This document shows, in pieces, positions 1 through 60,200 of a stretch of DNA of 64,000 nucleotides (the stretch's first letter is position 1; the number at the start of each line of letters is the position of its first letter). The notes below the pieces were generated by a model. That model did not search any database, was not told the origin of the DNA, and saw nothing but the letters and a program-made list of their open reading frames with translations. Made by a program: the position numbers and the translations under genes. Source of the stretch: Eledone cirrhosa (Eukaryota); the NCBI GenBank assembly GCA_964016885.1, contig OZ024762.1, positions 5,208,001-5,272,000 on the forward strand, in the 5' to 3' direction.

Positions 1-853
1 TGAGTTATCTCCGTTTATTTAGAGTTACTTCCCCGTTATGGAATTCTTTTTATTTTTCTTTCAATTCACTTCCGGTTCTTTGAAAGAAAATCGTTTTCCT
101 ATAACGAGGTAATGAAACTAAACCTTTTCTATATACACACTTTTTATTTACCGTGGCTTTCTGACACGATTTCTTTTAAACCAAAAAACTACTCATACGA
201 ATAGTGTTACTTCTTGTAAAGAAACAAAACTAGGCCATCTCGACACTATATACATTTCTAAGAACTATAACTCAAATTTCTCTATAAAACACATTCTGTG
301 TATCAGCTATCTTTCTTTATTGAAGACATTGTAAACCTTGTCAACAATACGTTTTACTATCTTCTCTTTTTAGAGACATACATATAAAGCTATTTACTTT
401 CTACTACGAAAAATATATTAACCTTCTCTATGCAGGAAAATACCTTTCCTATTTTTTATTAAGAAACAAAATATGTATAGCTACAGTTGTATTTTTTTCT
501 TCTCCATTTCTTTCACAACGAAGCACGGCAGCTTCATTTCTCGCACACGTGTGTGAATAAAAAACGTTAAACACTTGGATTTTACCAATTTTAGGTTGAT
601 CAGTTATTGAAACATGTTCTGTATATTTCCCTCCATAATGTTAGAAATAATTATTTAAACGTTAGGTTGTTTTTTTTTTGCTTCGGCTTAGGGTATGTAT
701 GTGCCATAGTATCTCCTGTGGCCAACTAAGCCCTGGTCATCATAAGCTTAGAGAGTGAAAGAAGCAGTTTTAGGTCATATACTTCACATAGCATCTCCTA
801 CACCCTGGGCAATGTCCCATAGTTTCTACCACGCTAGCATGGGTCGTTTTGCT

Positions 854-3112: not shown

Positions 3113-4604
3113 CAAGAGATTCACTCAGATGGTGAATGGGTGCTAAATATATATATTTATACAAATTTTTCTTTTCCTGAAGTGTGTAGACATATTTTTT
3201 GTATACACACTTATTGGCATTAGCTGTCTTGTTTCTTAGAAGAAATGAAAAAGCAAAAGTTTGGTTTATTTCACATGTTCGTCGCTAGATAAGGAAGTTT
3301 ATTTACATTCCTTTGAAGATGTCAGTAATATTTTCCTGTGTAGAGAAGGTTTAATTCTGTTTCTTAGTAAAAAAGAGAATCAGAAGTATATACGTTAGAG
3401 GGCTGACTGACCAAATGGAAAGAAACAATGCAGTTATTAGTAAGGAGAGTTTAAATTAATGCATGCAAGATTTCACTGTTCTAGCATCACTCCTTCATAG
3501 TTAGCCTATGAGCTTTTCAGTTGACCCTTGTTTGTACAGAAGAAGGTTTATATAAGTGTAACTTTATGTGTGTGTCTAGAGAAGATTTAGTTTTCTTTAT
3601 TAGACAAAGAAAGTATGTACATATAAATGTAACAGATAGAATGCCTTCATTTCAGCTGTCTGAATTCAAATCCCATCAAGGCCAACTTTGCCTTTCATCC
3701 ATTCAAGGTTGATAAAAAAAAAGTACCAGTCTAGTACTGGGGTGAATTCTTCCTCTACACTTCTCTAGAAGAAATCCGCTGTATTCAGACCTGGGCTCTG
3801 CCAGGTTTTAAAAAGAGCCCTAGAAACACTATGTCAATGCGTTGCCTCTATGACTCCCTCGGGAGTTACGGGTCCATACATATAACTCTCACAGCTTGGA
3901 AGTTCTGTATGTAAGTCTTTAAAAACGTTTCATCAGTACACTCAGCTGAGGAGTTAATCCTGCGATAGACCAGTGTCCTATCCAGGGAGAGTCTTATACT
4001 CTCAGACACTTAATTCCAAAGAAACTGGTGAGAAGCTGAGAACAGACTTTATATATACTATATTTAGGTTTAATCAATACATATGTTGATGATTGGAATC
4101 ATGGTCTTAAGATTACCCAAATCGATACTAACTATTACAAATACAGATCTGTCTAAGGCTATGTTACCTACATATTAATTGTTCTGAAAAGATGCATCAG
4201 TCTTCTCCTCTATGGAGCAGAAACGTGGCTCCACACAAAGTCGATTGACAGCAGAGCCCTGGGGACCATCTAAATCATCAGCCCACAGCCTTACTCTCGT
4301 TCAACACAGTAGCACCTGGTAGGCTCTACCCATGATGATGCCGGTCTAGATGTACAAAATACTCGAATATAAGGTGACCCTCCTCCCTATCTTATGTCTG
4401 AGAAGTGGGCAAAAATGCGAACTTTATTTACGTAGAATTTGAAGTTGGCGAAAATGGTCCTTGCTACAAAACTATTGACTCCCTATATAAGTCAACCCCT
4501 TACTACATATTCCCTGGCTTCTATTCGTGTATATCCCGTTATATATGTACCAAATACTAGTAGTTCCTTAATGGCTATATATCCCGTTATATTTATATAT
4601 AGAG

Positions 4605-4670
4605 AGAAACGGAAAGAAAGCGAGATAACACTCGGAATATGTCGTGTTATCTCGCTTTCTTTCCGTTTCT
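4605..4670. repeat. Perfect 27-bp-arm palindrome (12-nt loop) upstream of ncRNA copy 1; MITE-like remnant
   Basis: AGAAACGGAAAGAAAGCGAGATAACAC-TCGGAATATGTC-GTGTTATCTCGCTTTCTTTCCGTTTCT; mirrored at ~11466-11531. Confidence 0.9.
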
Positions 4671-4700
4671 TTTTTTTTAAAAAAGAAGGAAAATGTTAGC

Positions 4701-4706
4701 TATAAG
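4701..4706 (+). promoter_or_regulatory. TATA-like element (CTATAAGTATGACTA block) of ncRNA copy 1
   Basis: Identical block, first T 31 nt upstream of the predicted +1 G, in copies 1, 2 (11435) and 3 (13155). Confidence 0.65.
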
Positions 4707-4731
4707 TATGACTATTTGACTCTGTAGAATT

Positions 4732-4896
4732 GCGGCTTGTGCGTGGCGCTGCACGTAGCGTTTCTGGCTTCGATGTCGTACTTCGGTATGGCATGACCAC
4801 TCGATCGTGTCTGAAGTTCGAATCGTTGCGGGGTCGGCCGGGACCACAGCAGGCTGGCTTTATGCTGGCCTGCTCTCCCGCCGCGCATGAGTTTTT
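4732..4896 (+). ncRNA. Putative Pol III structured small RNA, copy 1 (unknown family, vault-RNA-like layout)
   Basis: A-box-like TGGCGCTGCACG 4744-4755, B box GTTCGAATC 4816-4824, TTTTT 4892-4896, 14-bp terminal stem, C(UUCG)G hairpin, 10-bp 3' hairpin. Confidence 0.7.
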
Positions 4897-7050
4897 GCCA
4901 AACAATTTGACGAGAGTTATCTCCCCTTAATTTGAATTATTTGCCCTTTGTTGACATTGTACTACTTCCGGTTTGTGGAACTCTTCTTCCTTTGTTGTCA
5001 TTTCTTTTCAGTGTATTGAAGCTGTAACATTATTCTATTTACTCTGGGACTATTAACGATATCTGTTTGGATTTTACGTTCGTGTAAAGAGGTATGTAAA
5101 GTTTTATTTGCACTCACGGATATTATTGAGACACAAAAATACATTTCACTATCTTGGAAATATACATACATTTAATTCTTCAATATAAATACATTCTTGT
5201 AGTGTTTTAGTTGCCATGTCTTTTAAATGTATTCTAAACACTCTTCACAGAACTAAACCTCCTTCCGAGAAACAAAACAAATAATATATACACGCAGCTA
5301 CCTCTTCTAACTAAACATACATGTTACTTTCCTCTCTATACCTTATACCATCGTAATTTCTACGTCGAGTTACCTCGGCATCACCACCTTTACTCCAACT
5401 CAGCATTCTCTCTTGCACATCATATCAACTATATATTTATATTATAATCGTATCTCTATTACACCTTCTCTGTATATACTTACTTAGAAGAAAGGTATAT
5501 CTCCTCATTATACACAGTATCCGGAGCTATATAAGAAACTGTAGTATATAGAATACAGACCCTCTCTCTATACATAAACACACTTCGAAGTATTGTATAT
5601 ATGCAGCATCTATATACACACAAGGCAAAGTTAAAACCCTCTTCTCTACTACTTTTCCCGAGGATACTTACATAAAACTCTGGATATTTTAATCAAGGCA
5701 TCTATTTTTTGTACGTAGAGATTCCCCTAACATCTAGAAGACATTATATTCAGTATCCTTCTCAATAGAGGAAAAAAACTCCCCATGTATTATATTACAC
5801 ATACATAGTTTCCTATAGATATGGTATTCCATAGAATACACTCCCTTGTTATACAAACATTGTACACACGTGTGTATATAATACACAGAAACTTACTACT
5901 AGATATTGTGTGTACACAGCAAAGAATCTACTGTTTGTATGTAGAGACTTCTCTGTAACATCTAGAAGGCTTATATATTTATTATCCTTCTCAATAATAA
6001 AAAAAAACATATATATTATATTATAAATACCTCATCTAGAGGCGTATAAGAAACTAAACTGTTCAGGATAAAGAGGTTTGATTTCTGCATCCAGACAATT
6101 ATTGGTGTTAGAGCTGTGTAATCTGGATTATTTTTATTAATATATTCTGTTTCTTTCCAGGTATATTGAAGATCTCCGCCAGCTCACCTGAGTGTGTAAA
6201 TACACACAGTCGTCTCAAGAAATAAAATAACTCCAACAACAAAATGTAGTTTATTTATTAATCTTTATTTCACTTAGAAGTAAGTATATCCTATAGAACA
6301 TTGTATTTTATTATATATATACACAGGTAGTATCTTACATGTAGATCGTTTAACTTCCACTCATAATATATGTATATATTTATGTAATTAGTGAGAAACA
6401 TCCTTCTTGAAAGAAGTGTATATATAGAATAGATTAATTAATGTGTATGTACACTATAGAATCCCAGTAAGAAACATCCTTCTTACTGAAAGAGGTAAGT
6501 GTGGTGCTATAGAAAAGTTTCTTTGAGAATGGAAACTGTATATATATATAATACAGTAATCCTAGCAAGTTTATTTCTTGCTGTGTATATAGGTATTCTA
6601 TATCTCCTGTAAGAGGTTATAATATCTATATATACCTCTCTCATACTTACCAGTAAGTATATAGGAATAGAGGTATTAATAAAGATGTTTCATATTATAA
6701 ACATTTATGATGTGTATATATACAGTATTCTAGTAAGTTTATTTCCTTCTGTATATAGAATAAATTTGTATTCTATATCTCTCCCAGTATGTATATAGGA
6801 ATAGAAGTATGAACTCAGTTCGAAACATCTTTCATGAAAGAAATGTATCTAATGCAGTATTCTAGTGAGGCCATTTCTTTCTGTATGTATACATATGCCT
6901 AGAGATAGAAGGGTGTTAATATGTATGGATTCTATAGAAGTAAGTGTATATATATATACACATGGTTTTAAGGTAATAGTATCCTATAGAATACACGTAC
7001 TTATATACATCTAGAGAAAAAAGTTCAACTCCTTAGCTATATTTATATAA

Positions 7051-9228
7051 ACATACATATACACACATATGTATATAGATATACATACATATGTGTATCT
7101 ATATACATATGTATGTGTATATATATATATATACATACATGTGTATATATACATACGTATGTATATTTATGCATACGCATGTATATATATACATACGTAT
7201 GTATACATATGTATATATACACATACGTATGTATATATACACATACGTATGTATATATATACTTATGTATATGTATACATACGTATGTTTATATACACAT
7301 ACGTATGTATATATGTATACATATGTATATATACACATACGTATGTATATATACACATACGTATGTATACATATGCATATTTATGTATACATACGTATGT
7401 TTATATACACATACGTATGTATATATGCATACGTATGTATATTTATGCATACGTATGTATATATACATACATACGTATGTTTATATACACATACGTATGT
7501 ATATATATACATACGTATGTATATATACACATACGTATGTGTATATATACATATGTATGTATATATACACATACGTATGTATATATATTCATACGTATGT
7601 ATATATATTCATACGTATGTATATATATACATACGTATGTATATATACACATACGTATGTATATTTATGCATACGTATGTTTATATACACATACGTATGT
7701 ATATATACACATACGTATGTATATATGCACATACGTATGTATATATATACATACGTATGTATATATCCACATACGTATGTATATATATATACATACGTAT
7801 GTATATATACATACGTATGTATATATGTACATACGTATGTGCATATATACACATACGTATGTATATATATACATACGTATGTATACATACGTACGTATAT
7901 GTATACATACGTATGTTTATATACACATACGTATGTATATATATACATACGTATGTGTATATATACATACGTATGTGTATATATACATACGTATGTATAT
8001 ATATACATACGTATGTATATATACACATACGTATGTTTATATACACATACGTATGTATATATGCACATACGTATGTATATATGCACATACGTATGTATAT
8101 ATGTATACATACGTATGTATATATACACATACGTATGTATATATACACATACGTATGTTTATATACACATACGTATGTATATATATGCATACGTATGTAT
8201 ATACACATACGTATGTATATATACACATACGTATGTGTATATACACATACGTATGTGTATATATACATACGTATGTATATATATACATATGTATATATAT
8301 ACACATACGTATGTATATATATTCATACGTATGTATATATATATACATACGTATGTATATTTATGCATACGTATGTTTATATACACATACGTATGTGGAT
8401 ATATACATACGTATGTATATATATACATACGTATGTATATATATATATACATACGTATGTATATATATATACATACGTATGTATATATATACATACGTAT
8501 GTTTATATACACATACGTATGCATATACATACGTATGTATATATATACATTCGTATGTATATATATATATACATACGTATGTATATATATACATTCGTAT
8601 GTATATATATACATTCGTATGTATATATATATATATACATACGTATGTTTATATACATACGTATGTTTATATACACATATGTATGTATATATATACATAC
8701 GTACGTATATATATACACATACGTATGTTTATATACACATACGTATGTGTACACATACGTATGTATATTTATGCATACGTATGTTTATATACACATACGT
8801 ATGTATATATATACATACGTATGTATACATATACATACGTATGTTTATATACACGTATGTATATATATACATACGTATGTATATTTATGCATACGTATGT
8901 ATATATATACATATACGTATGTATATATATACATACGTATGTATACACATACGTATGTATACATATACATACGTATGTATATATATACATACGTATGTAT
9001 ATATATACATACGTATGTATATTTATGCATACGTATGTTTATATACACATACGTATGTATATATACACATACGTATGTATATATATACATACGTATGTAT
9101 ATTTATGCATACGTATGTATATATATATGCATACGTATGTATATATATACATACGTATGTATGTGTATATATACATATGTATATATATATACACACGTAT
9201 GTATATATATATATACACATGTCTTTAA
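7051..9228. repeat. Satellite of ~18-24-bp self-complementary units (core CATACGTATG in TA/CA microsatellite), about 100 copies
   Basis: Direct reading; produces the spurious Y/I/H/T/M ORFs on both strands. Confidence 0.95.
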
Positions 9229-10676
9229 TCCTTAGCTATATTTATATAATACAGTAGTCTAGAGATATAAGGGTATTAATATGTCTGTAGGTTGTTGTCT
9301 TTATATCTGTGTAGGGTAACTTCTAAATTTACAATGAAGATATGCTTTATATACACAAAAGTGTTTATATGGAGTATGCCTGTCTAGAGGAGAACAGGGT
9401 ATTGATGTATCCTTTAAAGAAAAGGGTAACTGTGTACATAGGGTTCTACATACTGTACTCTATTGAACCCAACTTCAATATATAATGGAGGTACTTCTTC
9501 CAATATAGAGAAGAAGGTATATTATAGACATGAAGTAAGCTTTGTGTGTCATTGAATGTAAAGAACACTAAATTTCTTTGTATTTATACAGTTAGCTCTC
9601 TTGCTTCTTAGGAAGCATGTACACGTTCTACTGTGAGATCCTTATAAACAACTAGAAGAACAATAGTAGTAGTTTCCTAAGAGACGTATGTGTAGTATCT
9701 AGCGAGAATGTATTGATATGTATGTACAGATCAAAACCTCTTATCTTATATGTGTATGATGTTCATAAAGAGACACACACAATGTGGGTTTAGATATTTT
9801 CTTATATACAGACGTGTCTACTTTTATGTTATTTACCTGTATATAGAGATGGCTTGTTTCTAATAGGTGTGTATCTAGGCAATAACATTTCTCCTGTATA
9901 GAGGGGATTTATTTATATAATATGAATCTAGTATACAGTGACAGAAGGTTTTTGTCTTCCTACAGTGTAAGAGGTGTCTAGTGTGTGTATATATACAGGG
10001 AGTAAATAATAAGGCAACAAAGGAAAATACTGGTTTATTCTTTTATTTCACAATGTATTTACCTTTCTTCTTGAGATAGGGTTGTAGTAGTCTCCAGGTC
10101 TGGTGCTGTTCCTTAGGAATATAGAATAGGTTAGTTGTGTATATATAAAGATTTAGTTTTGTATCTAGTGAAGAACGTTTATATGTGGATGATGTAGCTA
10201 TCAAGCAGGTGAGGATGCTAGAAGTAGTAGTAGTGAGTCTTACGGCAGAGTAATGGAGCTACCATGCTTCGTTAGATATAACTGTATGGTTTAGCTTCTA
10301 TATTAATATGTCTAGAGGAGGTTTAGTTTCGTGTCTATTATTCCAGTATGAACAAGTTTGTATATTGCGCCTCATAAATATCTGTTATGATAAAAGGGAG
10401 ACCGTTTATATATGAATTTAGTTGTAACATGTTAGAAGAGGAAGCTGTGTGTGTGTGTATATATACAGATCATGTTTAGTTAGAAGAGGTAGCTGCGTGT
10501 ATATATTTAGTTTTGTTTCTCCGGAGGCGTTTTAGTTATGATTCTCAAAATATATACGTTTAAATAGGAAGAGTGTTTGTATATATAAATGTAGCTATAT
10601 GTGAGTGTTTAGAATAAAATTAGAAGACATGGCAACTAAAATATTACAAGAATGTATGTATTTTTGTGTCTCACTA

Positions 10677-12057
10677 ATATACAGAGAAGGTGTATGTGTA
10701 ATAGAGATGTTAAAAAGGGATATGAAGTGTGCAAGAGAGGATGCTGAGTTGGAGTAAAGGTGGTGATGCCGATGTAACTCGACGTAGAAATTACGATGGT
10801 ATAGTATCTAGAGTATCTACAGAAGATTAGAGGGAAGTAACATGTATGTTTAGTTCGATATATTATTTATTTTGTTTCTCGGAAGGAGGTTTAGTTCTGT
10901 GAAGAGTGTTTAGAGTAAATTTCAAAGACATGGCAACTAAAACACTACAAGAATGTATTTATATTGAAGAATTAAATGTATGTATATTTCCAAGATAGTG
11001 AAATGTATTTTTGTGTCTCAATAATATCCGTGAGTGCAAATAAAACTTTACAAACCTCTTTTCACGAACGTAAAATCCAAACAGATATCGTTAATAGTCC
11101 CAGAGTAAATAGAATAATGTTACAGCTTCAATACACTGAAAAGAAATGACAACAAAGGAAGAAGAGTTCCACAAACCGGAAGTAGTTCAATGTAAACAAA
11201 GGGCAAATAACTCAAATCAAAGGGAGATAACTCTCGTCAAATTGTTTGGCAAAAACTCGTGCGGGGGCGGGTAGCAGGCCAGCCTGCTGTGGTCCCGGCC
11301 GACTCCCGCAACGATTCGAACTTCAGACACGATCGAGTGGTCAGCCATACCGAAGTACGACATCGAAGCCAGAAACACTACGTGCAGCGCCACGCACAAG
11401 CCGCAATTCTACAGAGTCAAATAGTCATACTTATAGCTAACATTTTCCTTCTTTTTTAAAAAAAAAGAAACGGAAAGAAAGCGAGATAACACGACATATT
11501 CCGAGTGTTATCTCGCTTTCTTTCCGTTTCTCTCTATATATAAATATAACGGGATATATAGCCATTAAGGAACTGCTAGTGTTTTGTACATATATAACGG
11601 GATATACACGAATAGAAGCCAGGGAATATGTAGTAAGGGGTTGACTTATATAGGGAGTCAATAGTTTGACCATTTTTGCCCACTTCTCAGACATAAGATA
11701 GGGAGGAGGGTGACCTTATATTCGAGTATTTTGTACATCTATTCTTGTTAGACTAGACCGGCATCGTCATGGGTAGAGCCGACCAGGTGCTACTGCGTTA
11801 GACGAGAGTAAGGCTGTGGTGGTCCCATCTGATGTTTTAGATCGTCCTCGGGGCTCTGCTGTCAATCGTCTTTGTGAGGGGCCACGTTTCTGCTCCATAG
11901 AGGAGATGACTGATGCATCTTTTCAGAACAATTAACATCTAGGTAACATAGCCTTAGACAGATCTGTATTTGTAATAGTTAGTATCGATTTGGGTAATCT
12001 TAAGATCATGATTCCAATCATCAATATATGTATTGATTAAACCTAAATATAGTATAT
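10677..12057 (-). repeat. Right arm of inverted duplication (partner 4053-5476)
   Basis: Reverse-complement match to the left arm with scattered substitutions and indels. Confidence 0.92.
11251..11404 (-). ncRNA. Putative Pol III structured small RNA, copy 2
   Basis: Same TATA/A/B/T5 layout as copy 1; the 3' hairpin is apically shortened (AGCAGG-CTGG-CCTGCT) but still pairs. Confidence 0.68.
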
Positions 12058-12975
12058 TAAGAAGTGGCTCTTAAAATATGCAATGATAGTGTCGAGAGAA
12101 GGCTTAGTTAGTTACTTCTAACAATGTACCACTATGAATAAGACAGAAGGCGGTGTATGTAGATAGAATGTTTAGTTTTCCTGAGTATGAAGGGGTTTTA
12201 GTCATTATTCTTAGTAAAAAGACAGTTATATTATACATATACGTCTCTAACATTCCTCCTGTATATGAAGGGTAGTGAAATATATTCTTGTGTCTCAGGA
12301 ATAACTACGTGTTTATCGATGAATTGAAGGGACAACTAAAACATTACATACCTCTTTAGAAGAATGAAGGTGTATATATAAATGTAGCTTTATATGTGTA
12401 TATTGATCTAGATAGGAAACGTTTCTTCCAGTGTATGGATTAGAGAGGTAAATGCATACACTAAAGAATGTTAATATATATCTAAGACTGTATTTTCGAG
12501 TGTTTAGCAATGAATTAAAATATACATGGCAAATAAAGCGTTCGTATAGGTAAATTAGAGGGTATTTTACCTCAGCTAAAGAACATTTATATATATAAAT
12601 CTAGTTTTGTGTGTGTATTTAGGTTTAAATAAAACAATATGTACGTCTCTAGAATCTTTCTGTATATAGAATAATTGTTTCTACTTTTGGCACAAGGCCA
12701 GCAATTATCCAGTGCATTACTTCTACTTTATTTTATCGACCCCATAAGGATGAAAGGCATATAGAATAATGTATGTCTGTGAGTGTATATACGGCAAATA
12801 AAACATTACATACCTCTCACCATTAGTATAATATCCAGACTGATTCTATCAAATTACACGAGTAAATGCAAACGATGTTAACAGTTTAATTCAATAAAGA
12901 AGAATGACAACAAACGAGAAGAGTTCCAATCAGAGGCAAGTAATTCAAACGATAACTCTCAGCGAATTTTTTAGT

Positions 12976-13124
12976 AAAACTCAATGCGAGGCGGGGACGC
13001 AGGCCAGCATAAAGCCGGGCTGCCCCCGCAACGATTCGATCTTCAGACACATAGAATGGTCATGCCATACCGAAGTACGACAGCGAAGCCCGAAACGTTA
13101 CGTGCAGCGCCATGCACAGAGCGC
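12976..13124 (-). ncRNA. Putative Pol III structured small RNA, copy 3 (diverged paralogue)
   Basis: TATA 13150-13155, A box, B box GATCGAATC (fits GWTCRANNC), T4 at 12976-12979, UUCG hairpin retained. Confidence 0.68.
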
Positions 13125-13186
13125 AACTCTACTGAGTAAATTAGTCATACTTATAGTTAGAATTTTATTTATTAAAAAAACATATA

Positions 13187-13375
13187 TATAGAAACGGAAT
13201 GAAGACGAGATAACTGAGGGCGTGGAGAAATATCTCTTTCTGAATATATTTCGTATGGTGAGAGTTGAGATCTCTACCGAATAATTATCAATATTATACT
13301 TCGTCTCCGAAATATTTTCAGAAAGAAATTACTTTTTCACGACCGTGTTACCTTACTTTCATCCCGTTTCTATAT
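13187..13375. mobile_element. Imperfect ~185-bp foldback/MITE-like element upstream of ncRNA copy 3
   Basis: Ends ATAGAAACGGAATGAAG...CTTTCATCCCGTTTCTAT with internal inverted TTTCTGAATATATTTCG/CGAAATATTTTCAGAAA; ends resemble the 4605-4670 palindrome. Confidence 0.65.
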
Positions 13376-13489
13376 GTAACAAGTTTAAACTACTAGTATT
13401 TAATACATATATATACAGAACAATAAGTATATTTACTTCAAGATAGTAATGTTTATGTTAATACAGAAAATAAAAAATGCAAACCATCG

Positions 13490-16060: not shown

Positions 16061-18102
16061 AATAATTGTGGACCAGAGCCTGTTGAATTGTTGATAAAGC
16101 TGGAGTGTCATCCCTTATTGTAGCAACCTTGTCAACATGAATGTCCTTGGGGGATAAACCCCTTTTCTACAGGTACTTGATAATACCACGATGCCAAATG
16201 TTGTCCATTTTCAAGAGGTCATTACTAATTACATTTGAAGTCCTCTTTCAACAGTCAGATGTCAGTTTACTTGGAAAGAAACAATGCAGTTATTAATAAG
16301 AAGAGTTGAAATTAATTCATGCAAGATTTCCCAGCTCTAGCATCAGTCCTTCATAGTCAGCCAACCTTCGTACTTCTGCTGAGTCAAGCCCGGCGGGGGC
16401 TGACGTCTTAAACAAGCCCCAACAAATAAGAAAGATTTAAAAGAGAATATACTAATTACTAGATATTCACACAAAAGTGACATTAGAATTATTGCTGGAA
16501 ATAGCAGCCAAATATTTATCGCTCGCCACGTTTTAAAATAATGAAGGACACATTAGAAGATGTAGTTTTAGATAGTCATATATACACATATTGGTCAACG
16601 CTGGAATCTCATTGATTCTATATACATAAGTCGGTTCTCAGAGGACCTATTCAGGTTATGGGAACTGTTTTTCCCCCGTGTAAAAATTTGGCGTATATAT
16701 ATATAGATATATATACTTATATATGTCTGTATGCATTTTGTTGGGGTTTAATTGGTGAAAATTTCATAAGGGAGCTGTTGTTTACTTTCATTGACAAGTC
16801 AGACCTGAGCGATCAAGACATATATTTACATATACATAATCAAAAGTAAAAACATTGTTAATATCTTCCTACACAGATAAAATATAAAAGATTGTATTTA
16901 CATGTGTCACAGCTAATTCACCTCCGTAATTCTTAGGAAACCTGGCTTCTATTTCTAGCAAGTGGAGCGTAGACGTGGAGACATGTTGCTGTTGTTTACT
17001 TTTATTCACATGTCTTGAACGAGCAAGACAAGATGACCCGACATGTGTGTAATGGATGGTATACCTGCCGTGACCATCCTGTGTTTATATGATTATCAAG
17101 GTACGCACATCTACATCGTTGAATGCACCTTTCATTGTTTTAAAAGGGGTTGTAGAAGACAGAACATCTGAGGGTGAGAGGCCGGAGATCGTCAGTGAGT
17201 GGCTTTAAATTAATTAGCCATGATTCTATGAAATAAAGAAGCGAAATCACTTTGAAGAAAAATTAGGAGAACAATAGTAATTATTATGAGGCCGGTGTAG
17301 CGATTAAATATTGCCCTTTGTTTACATTAACCCCTCCCGACACCATGGTAATTAGATATTCAGATTACAGGGAGGTGTGGGATGCAATTAATTCTTTTAT
17401 TTATTTACTTATATCAAACAACAAACACGGTGCCAAGGAGTAAATTAAAAAACTCGCCTTTCTTTTAAAATAAAATTCAAGCCTAACCTCTCCCATGATG
17501 CAACAGTGCGGGTAAATAAGTTGACGCTTTCGCGACATCAGTTCCTAAAATTTCACCAGGACGAAATCTCAAGAACGATAACTCTGTCTTTACTTAATCG
17601 CAAAAATGGGTGCAAAAATTATTTCGAAACAACACTTGCTATGGACGAAAACGACAATATTAAAAGTATTTTGTGGATTTTTAATAGGTGAACACATCAT
17701 TATATATATATATATATATATATATACATTTATATAGATATAAATATACATGTATATATCCATATATATACATGTATATATTATATATACACATATACTC
17801 TTTTACCTGTTTCAGCCATCCGGCTGAGGCCATGCTGGGGCACCGCCCTTGTTGCTAAACAATTTATCTCCAGCCTGTATAGGTTGGCCACTGGTGTAAG
17901 AGGGAGTTTGTTGCTGCTGCCCTTAGGTTTCCCTCGTGTCTTGCTGTGGGCTCATCCGGGATCCTGGATAACAAGGTGTCGAGATGTTTCTTGAAGACAT
18001 CCACCTCCACGTCATGCAAATCTCATGTATATATATATATATACATGTATATATATATACATGTATATATATACATGTATATATATATACATGTATATAT
18101 AT

Positions 18103-19265
18103 AGCATCACTCCTTCATAGGCTGACCAAGATACTCTCATGGAATGATCAAATGAGGTTTATTTTTTAACATGCAAGATTTCACAGCCCTAGCATCACTC
18201 CTTCATAGGCTGACCAAGTTACTCTCATGGAATGATCAAATGAGGTTTATTTTTTAACATGCAAGATTTCACAGCTCTAGCATCACTCCTTCATAGGCTG
18301 ACCAAGATACTCTCATGGAATGACCAAATGAGGTATATTTTTCAACATGCAAGATTTCACAGCTCTAGCATCACTCCTTCATAGGCTGACCAAGATACTC
18401 TCATGGAATGACCAAATGAGGTTTATTTTTCAACATGCAAGATTTCACAGCCCTAGCATCACTCCTTCATAGGCTGAACAAGATACTCTCATGGAATGAC
18501 CAAATGAGGTTTATTTTTCAACATGCAAGATTTCACAGCTCTAGCATCACTCCTTCATAGGCTGACCAAGATACTCTCATGGAATGACCAAATGAGGTAT
18601 ATTTTTCAACATGCAAGATTTCACAGCTCTAGCATCACTCCTTCATAGGCTGACCAAGATACTCTCATGGAATGACCAAATGAGGTTTATTTTTCAACAT
18701 GCAAGATTTCACAGCCCTAGCATCACTCCTTCATAGGCTGAACAAGATACTCTCATGGAATGACCAAATGAGGTTTATTTTTCAACATGCAAGATTTCAC
18801 AGCTCTAGCATCACTCCTTCATAGGCTGACCAAGATACTCTCATGGAATGACCAAATGAGGTTTATTTTTCAACATGCAAGATTGCACAGCTCTAGCTTC
18901 ACTCCTTCATAGGCTGACCAAGATACTCTCATGGAATGACCAAATGAGGTATATTTTTCAACATGCAAGATTTCACAGCTCTAGCATCACTCCTTCATAG
19001 GCTGACCAAGATACTCTCATGGAATGACCAAATGAGGTTTATTTTTTAACATGCAAGATTTCACAGCCCTAGCATCACTCCTTCATAGGCTGACCAAGAT
19101 ACTCTCATGGAATGACCAAATGAGGTTTATTTTTCAACATGCAGGATTTCACAGCTCTAGCATCACTCCTTCATAGGCTGACCAAGATACTCTCATGGAA
19201 TGACCAAATGAGGTTTATTTTTCAACATGCCATATTGCACAGCCCTAACATCACTCTTTCATAGT
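18103..19265 (+). repeat. 88-bp satellite array, ~13 copies
   Basis: agcatcac recurs at 18103, 18191, 18279 and onward. Confidence 0.95.
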
Positions 19266-19844: not shown

Positions 19845-21183
19845 CTATGAAGGAGTGATGCTAGAGCTGTGCAATGTTGCATGTTGAAAAATAAACCTCA
19901 TTTGGTCATTCCATGAGAGTATCTTGGTCACCCTATGTAGGAGTGATGCTAGAGCTGTGCAATCTTGCATGTTGAAAAATAAACCTCATTTGGTCATACC
20001 ATGAGAGTATCTTGGTCAGCCTATGAAGAATTGATGCTAGAGCTGTGCAATCTTGCATGTTGAAAAATAAACCTCATTTGGTCATTCCATGAGAGTATCT
20101 TGGTCAGCCTATGAAGGAGTGATGCTAGGGCTGTGAAATCTTGCATGTTGAAAAATAAACCTCATTTGGTCATTCCATGAGAGTATCTTGGTCAGCCTAT
20201 GAAGAATTGATGCTAAAGCTGTGCAATCTTGCATGTTGAAAAATAAACCTCATTTGGTCATTCCATGAGAGTATCTTGGTCAGCCTATGAAGGAGTGATG
20301 CTAGAGCTGTGCAATCTTGCATGTTGAAAAATAAACCTCAATTGGTCATTCCATGAGAGTATCTTGGTCAGCCTATGAAGGAGTGATGCTAGAGCTGTGC
20401 AATCTTGCATGTTGAAAAATAAACCTCATTTGGTCATTCCATGAGAGTATCTTGGTCAGCCTATGAAGGAGTGATGCTAGGGCTGTGAAATCTTGCATGT
20501 TGAAAAATAAACCTCATTTGGTCATTCCATGAGAGTATCTTGGTCAGCCTATGAAGAATTGATGCTAAAGCTGTGCAATCTTGCATGTTGAAAAATAAAC
20601 CTCATTTGGTCATTCCATGAGAGTATCTTGGTCAGCCTATGAAGGAGTGATGCTAGAGCTGTGAAATCTTGCATGTTGAAAAATAAACCTCATTTGGTCA
20701 TTCCATGAGAGTATCTTGGTCAGCCTATGAAGGAGTGATGCTAGGGCTGTGAAATCTTGCATGTTGAAAAATAAACCTCATTTGGTCATTCCATGAGAGT
20801 ATCTTGGTCAGCCTATGAAGGAGTGATGCTAGAGCTGTGCAATCTTGCATGTTGAAAAATAAACCTCATTTGGTCATTCCATGAGAGTATCTTGGTCAGC
20901 CTATGAAGGAGTGATGCTAGAGCTGTGCAATCTTGCATGTTGAAAAATAAACCTCATTTGGTCATTCCATGAGAGTATCTTGGTCAGCCTATGAAAGAGT
21001 GATGCTAGAGCTGTGCAATCTTGCATGTTGAAAAATAAACCTCATTTGGTCATTCCATGAGAGTATCTTGGTCAGCCTATGAAGGAGTGATGCTAGAGCT
21101 GTGCAATCTTGCATGTTGAAAAATAAACCTCATTTGGTCATTCCATGAGAGTATCTTGGTCAGCCTATGAAGGAGTGATGCTA
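19845..21183 (-). repeat. 88-bp satellite array, inverted, ~15 copies
   Basis: Reverse complement of the 18103-19265 units. Confidence 0.95.
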
Positions 21184-22454: not shown

Positions 22455-22825
22455 CTATGAAAGAGTGATGCTAGGGCTGTGCAATCTTGCATGTGGAAAA
22501 ATAAACCTAATTTGGTCATTCCATGAGAGTATCTTGGTCAGCCTATGAAGGAGTGATGCTAGGGCTGTGCAATGTTGCATGTTGAAAAGTAAACCTCATT
22601 TGGTCATTCCATGAGAGTATCTTGGTCAGCCTATGAAGAATTGATGCTAGGGCTGTGTAATCTTGCATGTTGAAAAATAAACCTCATTTGGTCATTCCAT
22701 AAGAGTATCTTGGTCAGCCTATGAAGGAGTGATGCTAGAGCTGTGAAATCTTGCATGTTGAAAAATAAACCTCATTTGGTCATTCCATAAGAGTATCTTG
22801 GTCAGCCTATGAAGGAGTGATGCTA
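22455..22825 (-). repeat. 88-bp satellite array, third block, ~4 copies
   Basis: Same unit, following the second foldback element. Confidence 0.9.
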
Positions 22826-23214
22826 TATATATATATATATAGTTATATATATGTACATATATATATATATACATGTATATATATATACATATATATGATA
22901 ATGTATATAATAATTGTTTCTACTTTTGGCACAAGGCCAGCAATTATCCAGTGCATTACTGGTACTTTATTTTATCGACCCCATAAGGATGAAAGGCATA
23001 TAGAATAATGTATGTCTGTGATTGTATATACGGCAAATAAAACATTACATACTTCTCACCATTAGTATAATATCCAGACTGATTCTATCAAATTACACGA
23101 GTAAATCCAAACGATGTTAACAGTTTAATTCAATAAAGAAAAATGACAACAAACGAGAAAAGTTCCAATCAGGGACAAGTAATTCAAACGATAACTCTCG
23201 GCGAATTTTTTAGT

Positions 23215-23362
23215 ACAACTCAATGCGAGGTGGGGACGCAGGCCAGCATAAAGCCGGGCTGCCCCCGCAACGATTCGATCTTCAGACACATAGAATGGTC
23301 ATGCCATACCGAAGTACGACAGCGAAGCCCGAAACGTTACGTGCAGCGCCACTCTACTGAGT
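23215..23362 (-). pseudogene. Pseudogenised copy 4 of the small RNA gene (within duplicate 22908-23362 of 12670-13137)
   Basis: 14-nt deletion removes the 5' end, terminator TTTT->TTGT, TATA region replaced by an RTE fragment. Confidence 0.7.
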
Positions 23363-24010
23363 CCTTACCTGTTAGTTTGCTTGCTATCCAACTACATCTC
23401 TTGTCTACCCAAGATCTGCATTGTGTTCATTTCATAGAATTTATGCCAGTTCCTTTTCTGCATATCGAACATGGCCATTTCCCTGATGGGATCAGAGTTT
23501 TGTCCTCTTTTCTCCTCATCAGTTGTCTTAGGTAGGTTCACTCTGTCCTCTTGATTCCAACTGCTGTTTCCATAGCTAGAATTTATTCTCTAGCTCCTCT
23601 ACTGATTCTGTTATAAGAACCAGATCGTCAGCATAGAGAAGTTCCCATGGACAACCAGTCTTAAACTCCTCTGTTATGGCTTGGAGGACTATAATGAACA
23701 AGAGTGGGCTGAGGATCAAACCCTGATGTACTCCTACTTGTATCTGGAATTCCACACTAAACTCCATTCCTACCTTCACTTTACTGACAGCACCGCTGTA
23801 CAAAGTTTGCACTGTCCTCACAAGCCATTCCTCAACACCAAGCTTCCTTAAGGACCACCAGATGACAGATCGGGGTACCCTATCAAAGGCCTTCTCTAGG
23901 TCAACAAAAGCTAAGTATAGTAGCTTATTCTTCTCTAAGAACCTCTCTTGTAATTGTCTCACTAAGAAGAGGGCATCCGTTGTACTTTTCCCAGGCACAA
24001 AACCAAACTG
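23363..24010 (-). mobile_element. RTE-clade LINE RT fragment
   Basis: QFGFVPGKSTTDA, AFVDLEKAFDRVP, GVHQG, ELLYADD; disrupted downstream WPCSIC region. Confidence 0.9.
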
Positions 24011-24781
24011 TGTCACAGAAACCTCCCACTGGATTATACCATCAATTTCCAGGAGGTTCAGGTAAATTCTTTTGTTAACCTGTTTAGCTTGCTTTTTTTT
24101 TTTGGGGCTCCGGTGGCTTCATAACCGCTGTTTTCAGTTTGTCTGGCCTCTATAATGTATGTTAATTGCTCTGGACTTCTTTTAGTCCATGTAGCGCTTG
24201 CCGCATATCTCGAAAATTGCATTCCGCTTTGTTTTTTACCACAGCCGAAATACGATCTCGCTGAAATTATATTTGTATATATACATATATGCACACATAT
24301 ATAAACATGGCAAAAAGACTACAAAGACAAAAACAAGAAATCAAATTGTGGAAAAGGACAAAAAAGTATTTTTATATCGTTTAAAATATCAAATTGTTTA
24401 GGCTTTATTGCATATTTTTGGTTTATTCGATTGTTGAATTTTTATTTTTATTTCGGAGAATTTATGTATAACAAGAAACATAAATAATACATTGGGAGGT
24501 GTAGGGTGGGGGAGCACAGTATCGTCATAGTGACAATGATGTCACAGTATGGTCACCATCTGGTTGGTGTCGTCATGGCGACAATATGATCACAATGGCC
24601 AGTCACCTCAACCGGTTAATGTGTAGTCAGTGTTGTCATGGTGACAGTATGGTCAATCTGTTGCCATGGGGACAGCATGGGCAATGTGTTGCCACGGGGA
24701 CAGCATGGTCAATGTGTTGTATCTCATGATAAAGCAATAGTTTCAAATCATAGAATGAAATTCCAGATGTCAGTGTCTGTG

Positions 24782-25553: not shown

Positions 25554-51723
<26,170 letters not shown>

Positions 51724-53880: not shown

Positions 53881-54116
53881 TGCAATAGGGGATGTAACTC
53901 TCACTTATTACCTCTTCAAACTCGCACGTTTTATTATGTTAAAAATCTGATAATCCTCACCCAACAGCAAAGGTTAATTAAGGCCAACTAGGCGCCTTAT
54001 TCAAACTTAAAGAGTCACAGTTATCATCTAGCATAGACAATTATAATTTGATAATATAGACATAACTATAATTTGATGCTCCACCAACTATATTTCCTTT
54101 TTACTTACTTAATAAC

Positions 54117-54302
54117 TGTTTCTACTTTTGGCACAAGGCCATCAATTAACCAGTACATTACTGGTACTTTATTTTATCGACCCCCGTAAGGATGAACGGC
54201 AAAGTTAACCTCGGCGGGATTTGAACTCAGACCGCAAAGGGACGTAACTATGCTGGAAAACATGGCGTCCGACCCTCTACCGATACTGCCAATCCACCGA
54301 CC
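54117..54302 (-). mobile_element. Full-length Nin-like SINE with 18-bp TSD
   Basis: ttttacttacttaataac at 54099-54116 and 54310-54327. Confidence 0.8.
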
Positions 54303-54374
54303 GTTTTACTTTTACTTACTTAATAACGTATCTTTTTTTACATCTGTTAACAAGTTTTATTTATTACTCGGAAC

Positions 54375-55310
54375 AACCTGGCCCCTTTCAACGTTTGGTA
54401 CCTGGATGATGCCACGTTGCGCGGCCCCGTGGAGACTGTCTGTCGTGACCTGCAATCGGTGGTTCCTGTTCTGGCGAGAATCGGCCTTGAGATCAACTTG
54501 TCTAAGTCGGGGTTGGTGAATGTCAACTACGACCTAGAGGGCTTTCAATCTTCATCTCGGACGTGCTATCTATTCTCCGATAGGTGCAGGTGACCCCGAA
54601 AGGGGATGATCTCATCATCGGATCACCGATCCTCCCGCCGGCCAGGTCCAGAGAGCTCACGACCCTCACGAGTAGACTGGGCATGATTGACGCCCATCCA
54701 GCCCTCTTCCTGTTGAGAAACTGATTCGTCATGCCGAAGCTCCTCTACACATTACGTAGCGCTCCTTGCTACAGTCACGCAGTTAGTTTAGTCGACTCTT
54801 CCGGCCCTCACCCGCTGTCCTGCCGCTACAATGCCGGCCGCTTTCCACGCCATGCTGCTCTCAACGAGGTCATCAAGCATGAGTTGGATGCTGCAGGTTT
54901 TCCCTCCTAGCACAAGCTGGTATGGCTAGAAGGGACGGCAAAAGGCCAGAGAGCAAGACCATTTTCCCGTTCCACGATGGTAAACCCCTCATCTTGGATG
55001 CCACATGCAGCGACACATTCTCTTCCATCAACCTGATGCAGTCTACGACTAACCCAGGCTCTGCTGCACTTCGGGCCGAAGAGGGTAAACTCGCCAAATA
55101 TCGGTCGTTCCCCGACAGGTTTGCGGTCGAGCGCATGGCAGTAAAGACTTCTAGTGTCCTTGGTCCTAGGGCCACTTCCCTACTCCCTACCATCGGCACA
55201 GAGCTGGCTTCCCGCAGGTGTGAGCCTTGCGAGCTGGAATGACTCTTTCAACTCGTCTCCCTCACCATCCTCCAGGGAAACACTTTCTCTATTCTGTCCG
55301 CCGTGAGCGC
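54375..55310 (+). mobile_element. Decayed CRE-like non-LTR retrotransposon (RT plus restriction-like endonuclease)
   Basis: [47 protein letters not shown]...GKPLILDATCSDT; stops and frameshifts present. Confidence 0.75.
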
Positions 55311-57253: not shown

Positions 57254-60200
57254 AAAACCCTGGAGAACTACGATGGGTGGTGTGGTGGAGGTTTTGTCTC
57301 CACCCCTCCCTATAGTGGATTACCAATATCGGATTTTGCTATTATGTTTATTTTCGTTATGGATGGTGATTAGAATGTTATATTTCATGTAAACTGTTCT
57401 TCTTAAAACATTTAATATAACATTTTCTTGTGTTGTTATCTTTTAATTAATCTTTTGTTGTATGTTTATAACCTGTGAAGACTTTCTATGACAACAGATC
57501 ATGATTGAAGAAAATAAAAATATCTTGTCCGATTCACCGGATTCATTTTGCATTCCCTCCGTAGGGCAGAATCTTTCTATATATATATATATATATATAT
57601 ATATGTAGGAGGTGAGTTTTATTGTAGTACAATAAAGCAATGCAGATATCGGATAAGAAGCACTCTACAGTTTGTAGGACTGGAGTATACATAATACGAC
57701 TTTTAATCATATATATATTATATATATGTTATAGAATACTATTAGCTTCTCGCTAAAACAATTTCTATACCTTTCATTTATATATATATATATGTATATA
57801 TATGAGGGGGGGGGGGTCCAACGCAAATAACCATAATAATAGTTGATCGACTATTATTATGGTGTCTTGAAATTTTCCCAGTGTGTTTATTTATCAATCA
57901 TTGTGTGTATGTGTATATGTGTATATATATCTTCCGCCCTTTGTCAGGTTTTGTCTTTTGTCCTGCAGGATGTCCAAAGTCACTCTCCTCGCCAAGTAAA
58001 CTTGGTGGGGTTGCCGGTTTCGTCGCCGACGACCGGACCATGCGACAGGTTGTACTATGTTACATGTTACCAATAGCACTCAAGAGTGACCAGACATCCA
58101 AAGTCAACGGCCATCCAAAAGTGTGTAAGTATGTATATACACATGTACATATGTGTATATGTGTATAGACATGGGCGCATGTGTATGTATATGCGCGGGG
58201 ACATAGGAAAGGACGAGCTGGACACCCGATCGCGCGTTTAAACCACTGGCAGTGAAGGACCCCTAGCCTTTGTCAGGACATTCTTCTAGGAGAAGGTAAC
58301 TCAGGAAACTGGGATAACTCCGATAAAAAAAAACCCTGCGGTTTAGTAGTTACCGATGATGTTGATCTTTTCTTCTTTTCGGGTTATATCTACTGTCGCT
58401 CAGAGAGTGGGATTGACTCAGTACACAGTCTTTCCTCACTGCACGATAGAATTAATAATTATTAATAATGGTATATCGTGCAATGGCCATACTCGATAAC
58501 GAGGGGGCATATATGTGTGTGTAGGTGTTAAATTAGACATGTCCTGGGCCAATACTGGCCGAAACCGATCAAAGTTATACAGGGTTTATCAAAGAGACTC
58601 ATATGATTTCAAAATCATGCAGTAACTTGTACAATACCTATCTGAATATAAAGGTTTATCTAAAATTCCTACAAATGCTCAATATGCCCTCCTCTGATCA
58701 TACGACATTGTCAAACTTGTGTTATACCCGTGTGATGATTCTTTTTAACACACCCTTTATATAGAGACACACATGAGACAATGAGGTAACTCTCACACTA
58801 ACGTGTGTATATATACACTGAATCGGGTGAATCAGATGAGATGCTTTCCTATCCATATTTGAAGCATTCCCAATGTTTTCTTTTCTTTTTCATATTTGAA
58901 GATGACCCCCCCCTCCCCACATGTACTCGAGTGTTCGGCAAACTGATGTAGAGAGGATGTTCATGATCTTACATATATAATGGTTTCTGATTTAGGCACA
59001 AGGCCAGCTGTTTTGTGGGAAGGGAAAGTCGATTAAATCGACTTCAGTGTATTACTGGTACATTATTTTATCGACTTGGCAGTATCGGTAGAGGGTCGGA
59101 CGCCATGCTGTGACGCAGAGTTACGGTCCTTGCCATTCTGAGTTCAAATCTCGCCGAGGTTAACTTTGCCTTTCATCCTTACAGGGTCGATAAAATAAAG
59201 TACCAGTAATGCACTGGGTAATTGCTGGCCTTGTGCCAAAAGTAGAAACAATTATTTTATCGACTACCTTATGATGAAAGGCAAGATTTGAACTCAGAAC
59301 GTAAAGGGCCGTAAGACTATGCCGTAAAGCATGTCCGACGCTCTAGCGATACTACCAATCCACCTCGATCTTACATATATCTTGCACACAATACTTTCCG
59401 ACGGATTTGGAGGTCAGATTCATTGAAAACATGAATAACCCATGGAAAAAATATTCCCACCAAAGAAACCTCCGTGGGTTTACCCCCCCCCCTCTGTTTT
59501 CTAAAAAGTGAGTCGTTCCCAACTGATTTGAGTTAGGTTCGTTGAAAACACAAAAAGGATTTCCCACTGAACGGCTGAGGTGTGCTTTTTGATAAATTTA
59601 CCTTTAATAGCCAGAAAAAAATGTTTATGGTGTGCCATATCACCACCGGGTACTGGTATCATATAACCCAGTACAAGCTGCTTCAGGGTTAGCAACTGAA
59701 CCAGCTCCTCCACCAGACCCTGGTCTGGGGTGGAGGGTAAGTTAAAGGATGGATGAACTCCTCAGAGTCAATGGCCATCCACCTTAACTATGGGTTAAAT
59801 AGCCTCACCACCTGCATTTGGCCAAGTATGGTGAGTACAGCTACATCCCTGAAGACATGACCAAAACCAAACAAACAGAAAGCAGTGGAGGTCAACTACA
59901 GGAATCTAATGCCACTATTTGAACCTTTTTCATATGAATCTGGTCAAAACTAGCTCTGGTTCTATTAAAAGAAATACATTTTAAAAGGTTCCTATTTAAA
60001 TTTTAATATCTTACAACATAATTTTATATAAAACCCATATCTCATCATCACGATTTAACATTTATTTTCCATGCTTGCACAGGTTAGATGGGCTGTCACA
60101 TGAAACAAGTTGGGTTAGTTGACCACGTTTCATACAGAACCGTTTCTAGTTTGATTTCTCCAGCTGGATGTCCTTCCTAACACCAACCACATTACAGTAT

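Follow-up and report, generated by a model that had tools for sequence, protein, structure and literature searches.

What is the GC-rich, hairpin-forming element that recurs in the stretch of Eledone cirrhosa DNA analysed here (64,000 nucleotides; the window): a gene for a functional non-coding RNA, and if so of which kind, or a cassette carried along by local duplication? The window is eukaryotic and rich in repeats. An exon at 43.7-43.9 kb matches Pfam Cse1; among proteins it is closest to Octopus sinensis exportin-2, at 95% across the exon, and an Argonauta protein is among the next-best matches. The RNA copies are intergenic, beyond the 3' end of the exportin-2 gene. This gene (CSE1L; 51723 to 25557, minus strand, about 25 exons) is usable as a synteny anchor for the RNA cluster.

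Four copies of this low-copy family were found in the window, three intact predicted Pol III genes and one broken copy (Table 1). An upstream 15-mer occurs exactly three times in the 64 kb (4700 on the plus strand, 11436 and 13156 on the minus strand), while with up to two mismatches allowed, 100 shuffles gave 0.53 matches on average and three matches were reached by 2 of them. When +1 is placed at G4732, G11404 and G13124, the T of TATAAG stands at -31 in each intact copy; the start site was inferred from the -31/-24 spacing, so that the agreement in TATA position is partly circular. This is the spacing of the TATA-like box in rodent 4.5S genes, as described in PMC7279448. We also scanned both strands of the 64 kb with a relaxed pattern (A box, 30-80 nt, B box, 20-90 nt, T4), using consensus boxes and leaving A-box position 7 free, and obtained exactly three sites, which are the three intact copies, each with a TATA upstream. 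The T-run is T4 in copy 3 and T5 in copies 1 and 2, and the inferred ends give predicted RNAs of 149, 154 and 165 nt for copies 3, 2 and 1. The original prediction placed the TATA of copy 3 at exactly -31, and the coordinates agree with it, given +1 at G13124; the A box, B box, UUCG hairpin and T-run (T4) that it described as kept in this copy were each located.

Table 1. Positions of the gene copies and their elements in the window
Copy	Feature	Position	Strand	Remarks
1	15-mer	4700..4714	+	
1	Predicted RNA	4732..4896	+	165 nt; longest 3' domain; T5 end
1	A box	4744-4755	+	
1	B box	4816-4824	+	
2	Predicted RNA	11251..11404	-	154 nt; lacks 11 nt at the apex of the 3' domain and 1 nt at the core junction
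2	15-mer	11422..11436	-	
3	Terminator-like run	12976..12979	-	T4
3	Predicted RNA	12976..13124	-	149 nt; 58% GC vs 28-31% in flanks; putative start
3	Variable 3' hairpin domain	12993..13027	-	
3	B box	13033..13041	-	GATCGAATC; 3' strand of the inner stem (13033-13027) comes directly after
3	Invariant UUCG hairpin	13064..13081	-	
3	A box	13101..13112	-	Same in all four copies; off the consensus at position 7
3	15-mer	13142..13156	-	TATA-like octamer at -31/-24 (13155-13148)
3	Upstream element	13191..13214	-	Near -90 to -67; common to copies 1, 2 and 3
4	Probable pseudogene	23215..23362	-	Missing from the original prediction

The upstream element is possibly a distal promoter element. A palindrome with two perfect arms of 27 bp stands just upstream of the gene in copies 1 and 2 (4605-4670 and about 11453-11544); the element forms its right arm, and copy 3 retains mainly this arm. 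The palindrome attracts weak microRNA-model matches.

Over 448 bp (12665-13112 vs 22904-23351) copy 4 duplicates copy 3 at 97%; in it, LINE reverse-transcriptase sequence replaces the TATA region, a 14-nt deletion runs across the start site and the 5' stem strand, and the T-run is interrupted. Judged by its letters, it has lost TATA region, start site and terminator and is probably a pseudogene; that the three were lost together in one copy speaks for function of the intact ones. Copies 1 and 2 belong to a duplicated block as well (4053-5426 vs 12057-10719; 88%), and since both upstream and downstream flanks are common to copies, the family spread as DNA. A covariance model built from the three copies finds, in the window, the four copies and one partial antisense match at E=1.5. 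The first letters of the window (1-136) resemble the downstream flank of copy 1 (score 52; mean 31.5 and maximum 50 in 300 shuffles), so a further copy may adjoin the left edge of the window.

Copy number was approached with four contig runs of a close relative, from at most two samples of one study, which are nowhere recorded as RNA and behave as genomic DNA. They contain 40-53% of the sampled words, and their alignment to 10900-13450 leaves none of the 30 bins empty, as expected for DNA. Summed contig depth, which is no true copy number, is 3.0-5.5 times that of the neighbouring spacer over the RNAs in the four runs, compared with about 20,000 times spacer depth for a SINE in the same stretch (run X1), and this gap excludes a high-copy repeat at a likeness of at least 82%. 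Low-depth contigs (5-18 vs about 220) carry further versions. For example, one that is present in three of the four runs aligns only over 11309-11454 (promoter and 5' domain) with 17 differences in 146 letters, and is distinct from copy 1 (1 mismatch) as well as from copy 3 (22); another covers 12994-13170 with 23 differences and 16 gap letters, near the pattern of copy 1 against copy 3. A low-depth contig aligns upstream too (13176-13312; 15 differences in 137), and therefore such contigs give no sign of stronger conservation within the RNA. In runs X1-X3, contigs with about 10% divergence reach 3-8% of the main depth, which suggests that the sample contains DNA of a second, related genome.

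By folding, the intact copies are predicted to form a GC-rich panhandle of 149-165 nt, with the ends pairing in all three. The z-scores of copies 1, 2 and 3 are -5.7, -2.1 and -3.8, and 0, 5 and 0 of 200 shuffles, respectively, are as stable. Several structural statements made from the letters alone hold: the inner-stem variants are one-sided changes compatible with pairing, a terminal-stem G.U becomes G-C in copy 2, copy 3 gains three terminal-stem mismatches (positions 7, 12 and 13 are unpaired, where the helix of copy 1 is continuous), and each rewritten version of the 3' domain folds as a hairpin that its indels preserve. Three adjacent two-sided changes at the base of the copy 3 terminal stem, overlooked before, may be a single register shift. 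Copy 2 as assembled gives its inner stem and UUCG hairpin a probability of 0.00, and forcing them costs 6.2 kcal/mol; copy 2 alleles from the related DNA runs restore both (0.86 and 0.80). A copy-3-like allele in the runs carries four changes in the 3' domain and terminal stem that weaken the fold from -63.2 to -56.1 kcal/mol, and it still has the 3' hairpin.

In order to judge the proposed selection on structure, divergence inside the RNA was compared with that of the flanks. Between copies 1 and 3, the part from A box to inner stem has 6 substitutions in 86 positions against 122 in 762 for the flanks (p=0.026), the flank pool being three alignable blocks with a fourth block (27 of 166) left out and the stretch from about -90 to -600 unalignable. 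When the 5' end is included ungapped, the count is 10 of 98 (p=0.18). The promoter (-35 to -1) diverges at the flank rate (5 of 35; p=1.0). When copies 1 and 2 are compared, 7 of 55 aligned sites of the 3' domain are different, in addition to the deletion of 11 nt, whereas the flanks have 13 differences in 624 sites (p=0.0005) and the 5' domain has only 1 in 96. We made 2000 random mutants, each with one deletion and six substitutions: both core helices are kept in 17.8% of them, and at the stability of copy 3 in only 3.8%. In the three-sequence alignment 96% of cells are paired, and in three pairs both partners are replaced; covariation on these three sequences has no significance (25 of 500 shuffles reach the observed level), the tested structure being derived from the same sequences and the three two-sided pairs being adjacent.

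From the above, the 3' domain changes faster than its flanks and yet forms a hairpin each time, so the contrast between a constant 5' domain and a variable 3' domain, as first proposed, is well supported. Selection on structure is moderately supported by the compared letters: the slower 5' core and the rarity of mutants with the same fold and stability speak for it, while the second alignment and the covariation test do not, and the promoter is as divergent as the flanks. Part of the core is constrained as a DNA promoter rather than as RNA, and gene conversion between paralogues could mimic conservation.

Which RNA would such genes make? We give about an even chance to a lineage-specific, protein-binding Pol III RNA of BC1, 4.5SI or vault type, derived from a tRNA gene. 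The cluster would then be a small set of functional Pol III genes, spread by local segmental duplication and encoding a structured non-coding RNA of 149-165 nt, whose source is probably a tRNA-type gene, with tRNA-Arg(UCG) as best candidate. A and B boxes, TATA-like boxes and T-runs are used by TFIIIC, TFIIIB and Pol III. Here TFIIIC would bind the internal boxes, TBP/TFIIIB would use the TATA-like box at -31/-24 and Pol III would stop at the T-run. In the predicted fold the paired transcript ends close the panhandle, which encloses a constant 5' arm, made up of the inner stem, a three-way junction and the UUCG hairpin, and a freely varying 3' hairpin. The constant arm may be the binding surface, and the 3' hairpin a spacer that needs only pairing. 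La binds the 3' U-tail, according to PMC6114260, and the product would most likely be stabilised by La and bind protein, much as BC1, 4.5SI or free vault RNA do.

Two rodent systems are among the nearest models. BC1, according to PMC6114260, is a Pol III RNA of about 150 nt with tRNA origin, whose 5' domain is refolded to an extended stem and followed by a 3' stem-loop, and by analogy only it resembles the predicted octopod RNA in size, polymerase, extended-stem 5' domain and 3' stem-loop. However, BC1 is derived from tRNA-Ala, is rodent-specific and has a central A-rich tract that is absent here, while the octopod RNA has its ends paired in the predicted fold. The 4.5SI and 4.5SH genes share A and B boxes and a TATA-like box at -31/-24, and 4.5SI has a tRNA origin (PMC7279448 and PMC10137851), but they are confined to mouse-like rodents and no sequence relationship is expected.

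An origin from a tRNA-Arg(UCG) gene is suggestive only. The core hairpin matches the tRNA-Arg(UCG) anticodon arm in 11 of 12 letters, as do 21 of 20000 shuffles, although this lead was chosen post hoc and, with roughly 50 isoacceptors allowed for, we estimate about p=0.05. A pattern made from the hairpin and the B box retrieved an ARAGORN-called tRNA-Arg(UCG) in 38 of 60 metagenome loci; 21 of the remaining loci have no matching tRNA call and one has a tRNA-Pro. The parts of a tRNA can be traced in sequence along the 5' domain (D-stem-like pairing, 14-nt insert, anticodon-like arm, long variable arm, T-stem-like pairing), and copy 1 also agrees with 6 of 8 letters of the 3' end. The differences are a 6-nt loop, the 14-nt insert before the arm, a T-stem mismatch and the long 3' extension. 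In whole-gene alignments to four eukaryote-type tRNA-Arg(UCG) genes, 22-283 of 1000 shuffles score at least as high; for a bacterial-type gene the score was better (10-57 of 1000). No excess similarity was seen with five control tRNAs taken from the flanks of loci, a number too small for ranking isoacceptors. At the 90% threshold of ARAGORN copy 1 is among three calls, and at 80% there are 91 calls in the window, so the matches on all four copies mean little.

A tRNA itself was rejected: the element has no cloverleaf with a 7-nt anticodon loop and no acceptor stem, is uncalled by default ARAGORN and has no match in Rfam. Rfam gave no match at gathering score, the weak ones being the upstream palindrome or chance, and a match to the mascRNA model (E=6.7) is at noise level. 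Homologue searches returned none in metagenome contigs, none in viral contigs with a gapped pattern and none in 50,697 phage records, and a viral contig held one isolated 18-letter match without the rest of the element; from these viral and phage searches, a viral VA/EBER-like origin is unsupported.

The main rival is a divergent vault RNA, that is, an octopod vault RNA beyond the reach of Rfam RF00006 that binds TEP1 in the vault particle, which we rate as a serious though rather unlikely possibility. Vault RNA genes have A and B boxes, an upstream TATA element, paired ends and clustered paralogues with a pseudogene (PMC7058938 and PMC10491885), and promoter type, paired ends and clustering recur in PMC7904556 and PMC7916137. 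The octopod genes resemble them in the internal A and B boxes, in the predicted panhandle and in local paralogues with a pseudogene; of the upstream elements of vault RNA genes (TATA, CRE/TRE-like), a TATA-like box stands in 3 of 3 intact copies, and their A box is predicted to pair with a pyrimidine-rich 3' motif. Vault RNAs are reported for lophotrochozoans in PMC2770079 and PMC8824774, the latter listing Lottia and Helobdella; in the latter paper, the putative vault RNAs of Fasciola likewise form local clusters and have about 45 nt with a hairpin-like stretch after the B box. MVP is reported in Aplysia. Moreover, the vault motif is present here with 7 of 8 letters, invariant across copies.

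However, this motif, TTACTTCG, comes directly after the A box in human and Fasciola (PMC12992080, from primers, and PMC8824774), while here it stands 22 nt further away, and 915 of 20000 shuffles equal its 7 of 8 letters. Five Rfam scans, four of them at E up to 10, gave no match to RF00006, although E-values that count all 4227 families could let a weak match escape. In vault RNAs the central domain between the boxes is the variable one (PMC7058938), whereas here the central part is the most constant and variation lies 3' of the B box. Vault RNAs are 80-150 nt long, and the ends placed here give 149-165 nt. For the missing Rfam match, the displaced motif and the variable part elsewhere, the RNA was not filed as a vault RNA. 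Eleven consecutive letters in the 3' domain of copy 1 (4852-4862) equal the start of a human vault RNA primer (PMC12992080); copy 2 lacks these letters and copy 3 has them in altered form, so this is probably chance.

That the element is a non-functional, tRNA-pseudogene-like cassette in segmental duplications, its core likeness being due to gene conversion, recent duplication or chance, seems to us improbable. Every copy sits in a duplicated block, the statistics are weak, the promoter changes as fast as the flanks, one copy is clearly broken and copy 2 misfolds as assembled. Against this, TATA spacing, both boxes, end pairing and terminator are kept in three copies across 12-24% flank divergence, the 58% GC island persists within flanks of 28-31% GC, and the 3' domain still forms a hairpin after each of its indels.

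Far less probable still is that the element is a SINE or that an octopus SINE family arose from it. The internal Pol III promoter would fit, and tRNA-derived SINEs are reportedly known in octopus. But the contig depth, an indirect measure of copies, lies about four orders below that of a real SINE and short of the 100 copies that SINEBase takes as its criterion, the flanks are homologous between copies, which indicates spread as DNA unlike retroposition, and three local SINE heads share no similarity beyond the boxes (186-842 of 1000 shuffles as high). The high-copy SINE of the window is found at 12663-12759, 28021-28260, 54100-54400 and 59040-59290, and in its head the A and B boxes are 64 nt apart, a wider spacing than that of a tRNA.

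A 7SL(Alu)-derived or Y-like RNA is hardly credible: a small hairpin that may form at the 5' end, with GUAR after it, resembles the layout of the Alu domain and the G12-to-A change of copy 3 is compatible with it, but this hairpin has probability 0.00 in all three folds, Rfam gave no SRP or Y RNA match, and the terminal stem is without the bulged C that forms the Ro60 site in the Y RNA stem.

Returning to the lineage-specific, tRNA-gene-derived RNA, its boldest form is a long shot: an octopod-born RNA in which the anticodon arm of a tRNA-Arg(UCG) gene was refolded to the UUCG hairpin, and which by analogy would act as a neuronal translational regulator. If true, the BC1/BC200 design would have arisen independently a third time, in cephalopods; if the RNA is vault-bound instead, it would be a vault RNA that still displays a tRNA anticodon arm at the vault signature motif. 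The gene kind is known, while the family and its layout appear undescribed. In a literature search mostly outside subscription papers no description of such an RNA in cephalopods and no paper on a cephalopod Pol III transcriptome were found, and the main text of an octopus small-RNA paper (PMC9699675) contains none of six relevant terms; this transcriptome looks little described. The gene model comprises promoter, ends and, as an internal control, a pseudogene; it opens the question of the identity of cephalopod vault RNA and also lets an octopod-specific BC1-like RNA be tested. The promoter could serve cephalopod genetics as a native Pol III driver.

The surroundings of the cluster hold further repeats. 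Copies 1 and 2 are separated by a TA/ATAC-rich simple repeat of 2.3 kb (6990-9260), and LINE fragments with reverse-transcriptase matches lie at 1684-2694, which carries a PHD-finger match too, and at 23576-24118. Tandem arrays of an 88-bp unit occur in inverted orientation within a larger palindromic duplication (18102-19264, 19845-21183 and 22455-22825), and a piece of this unit recurs near 3466-3537.
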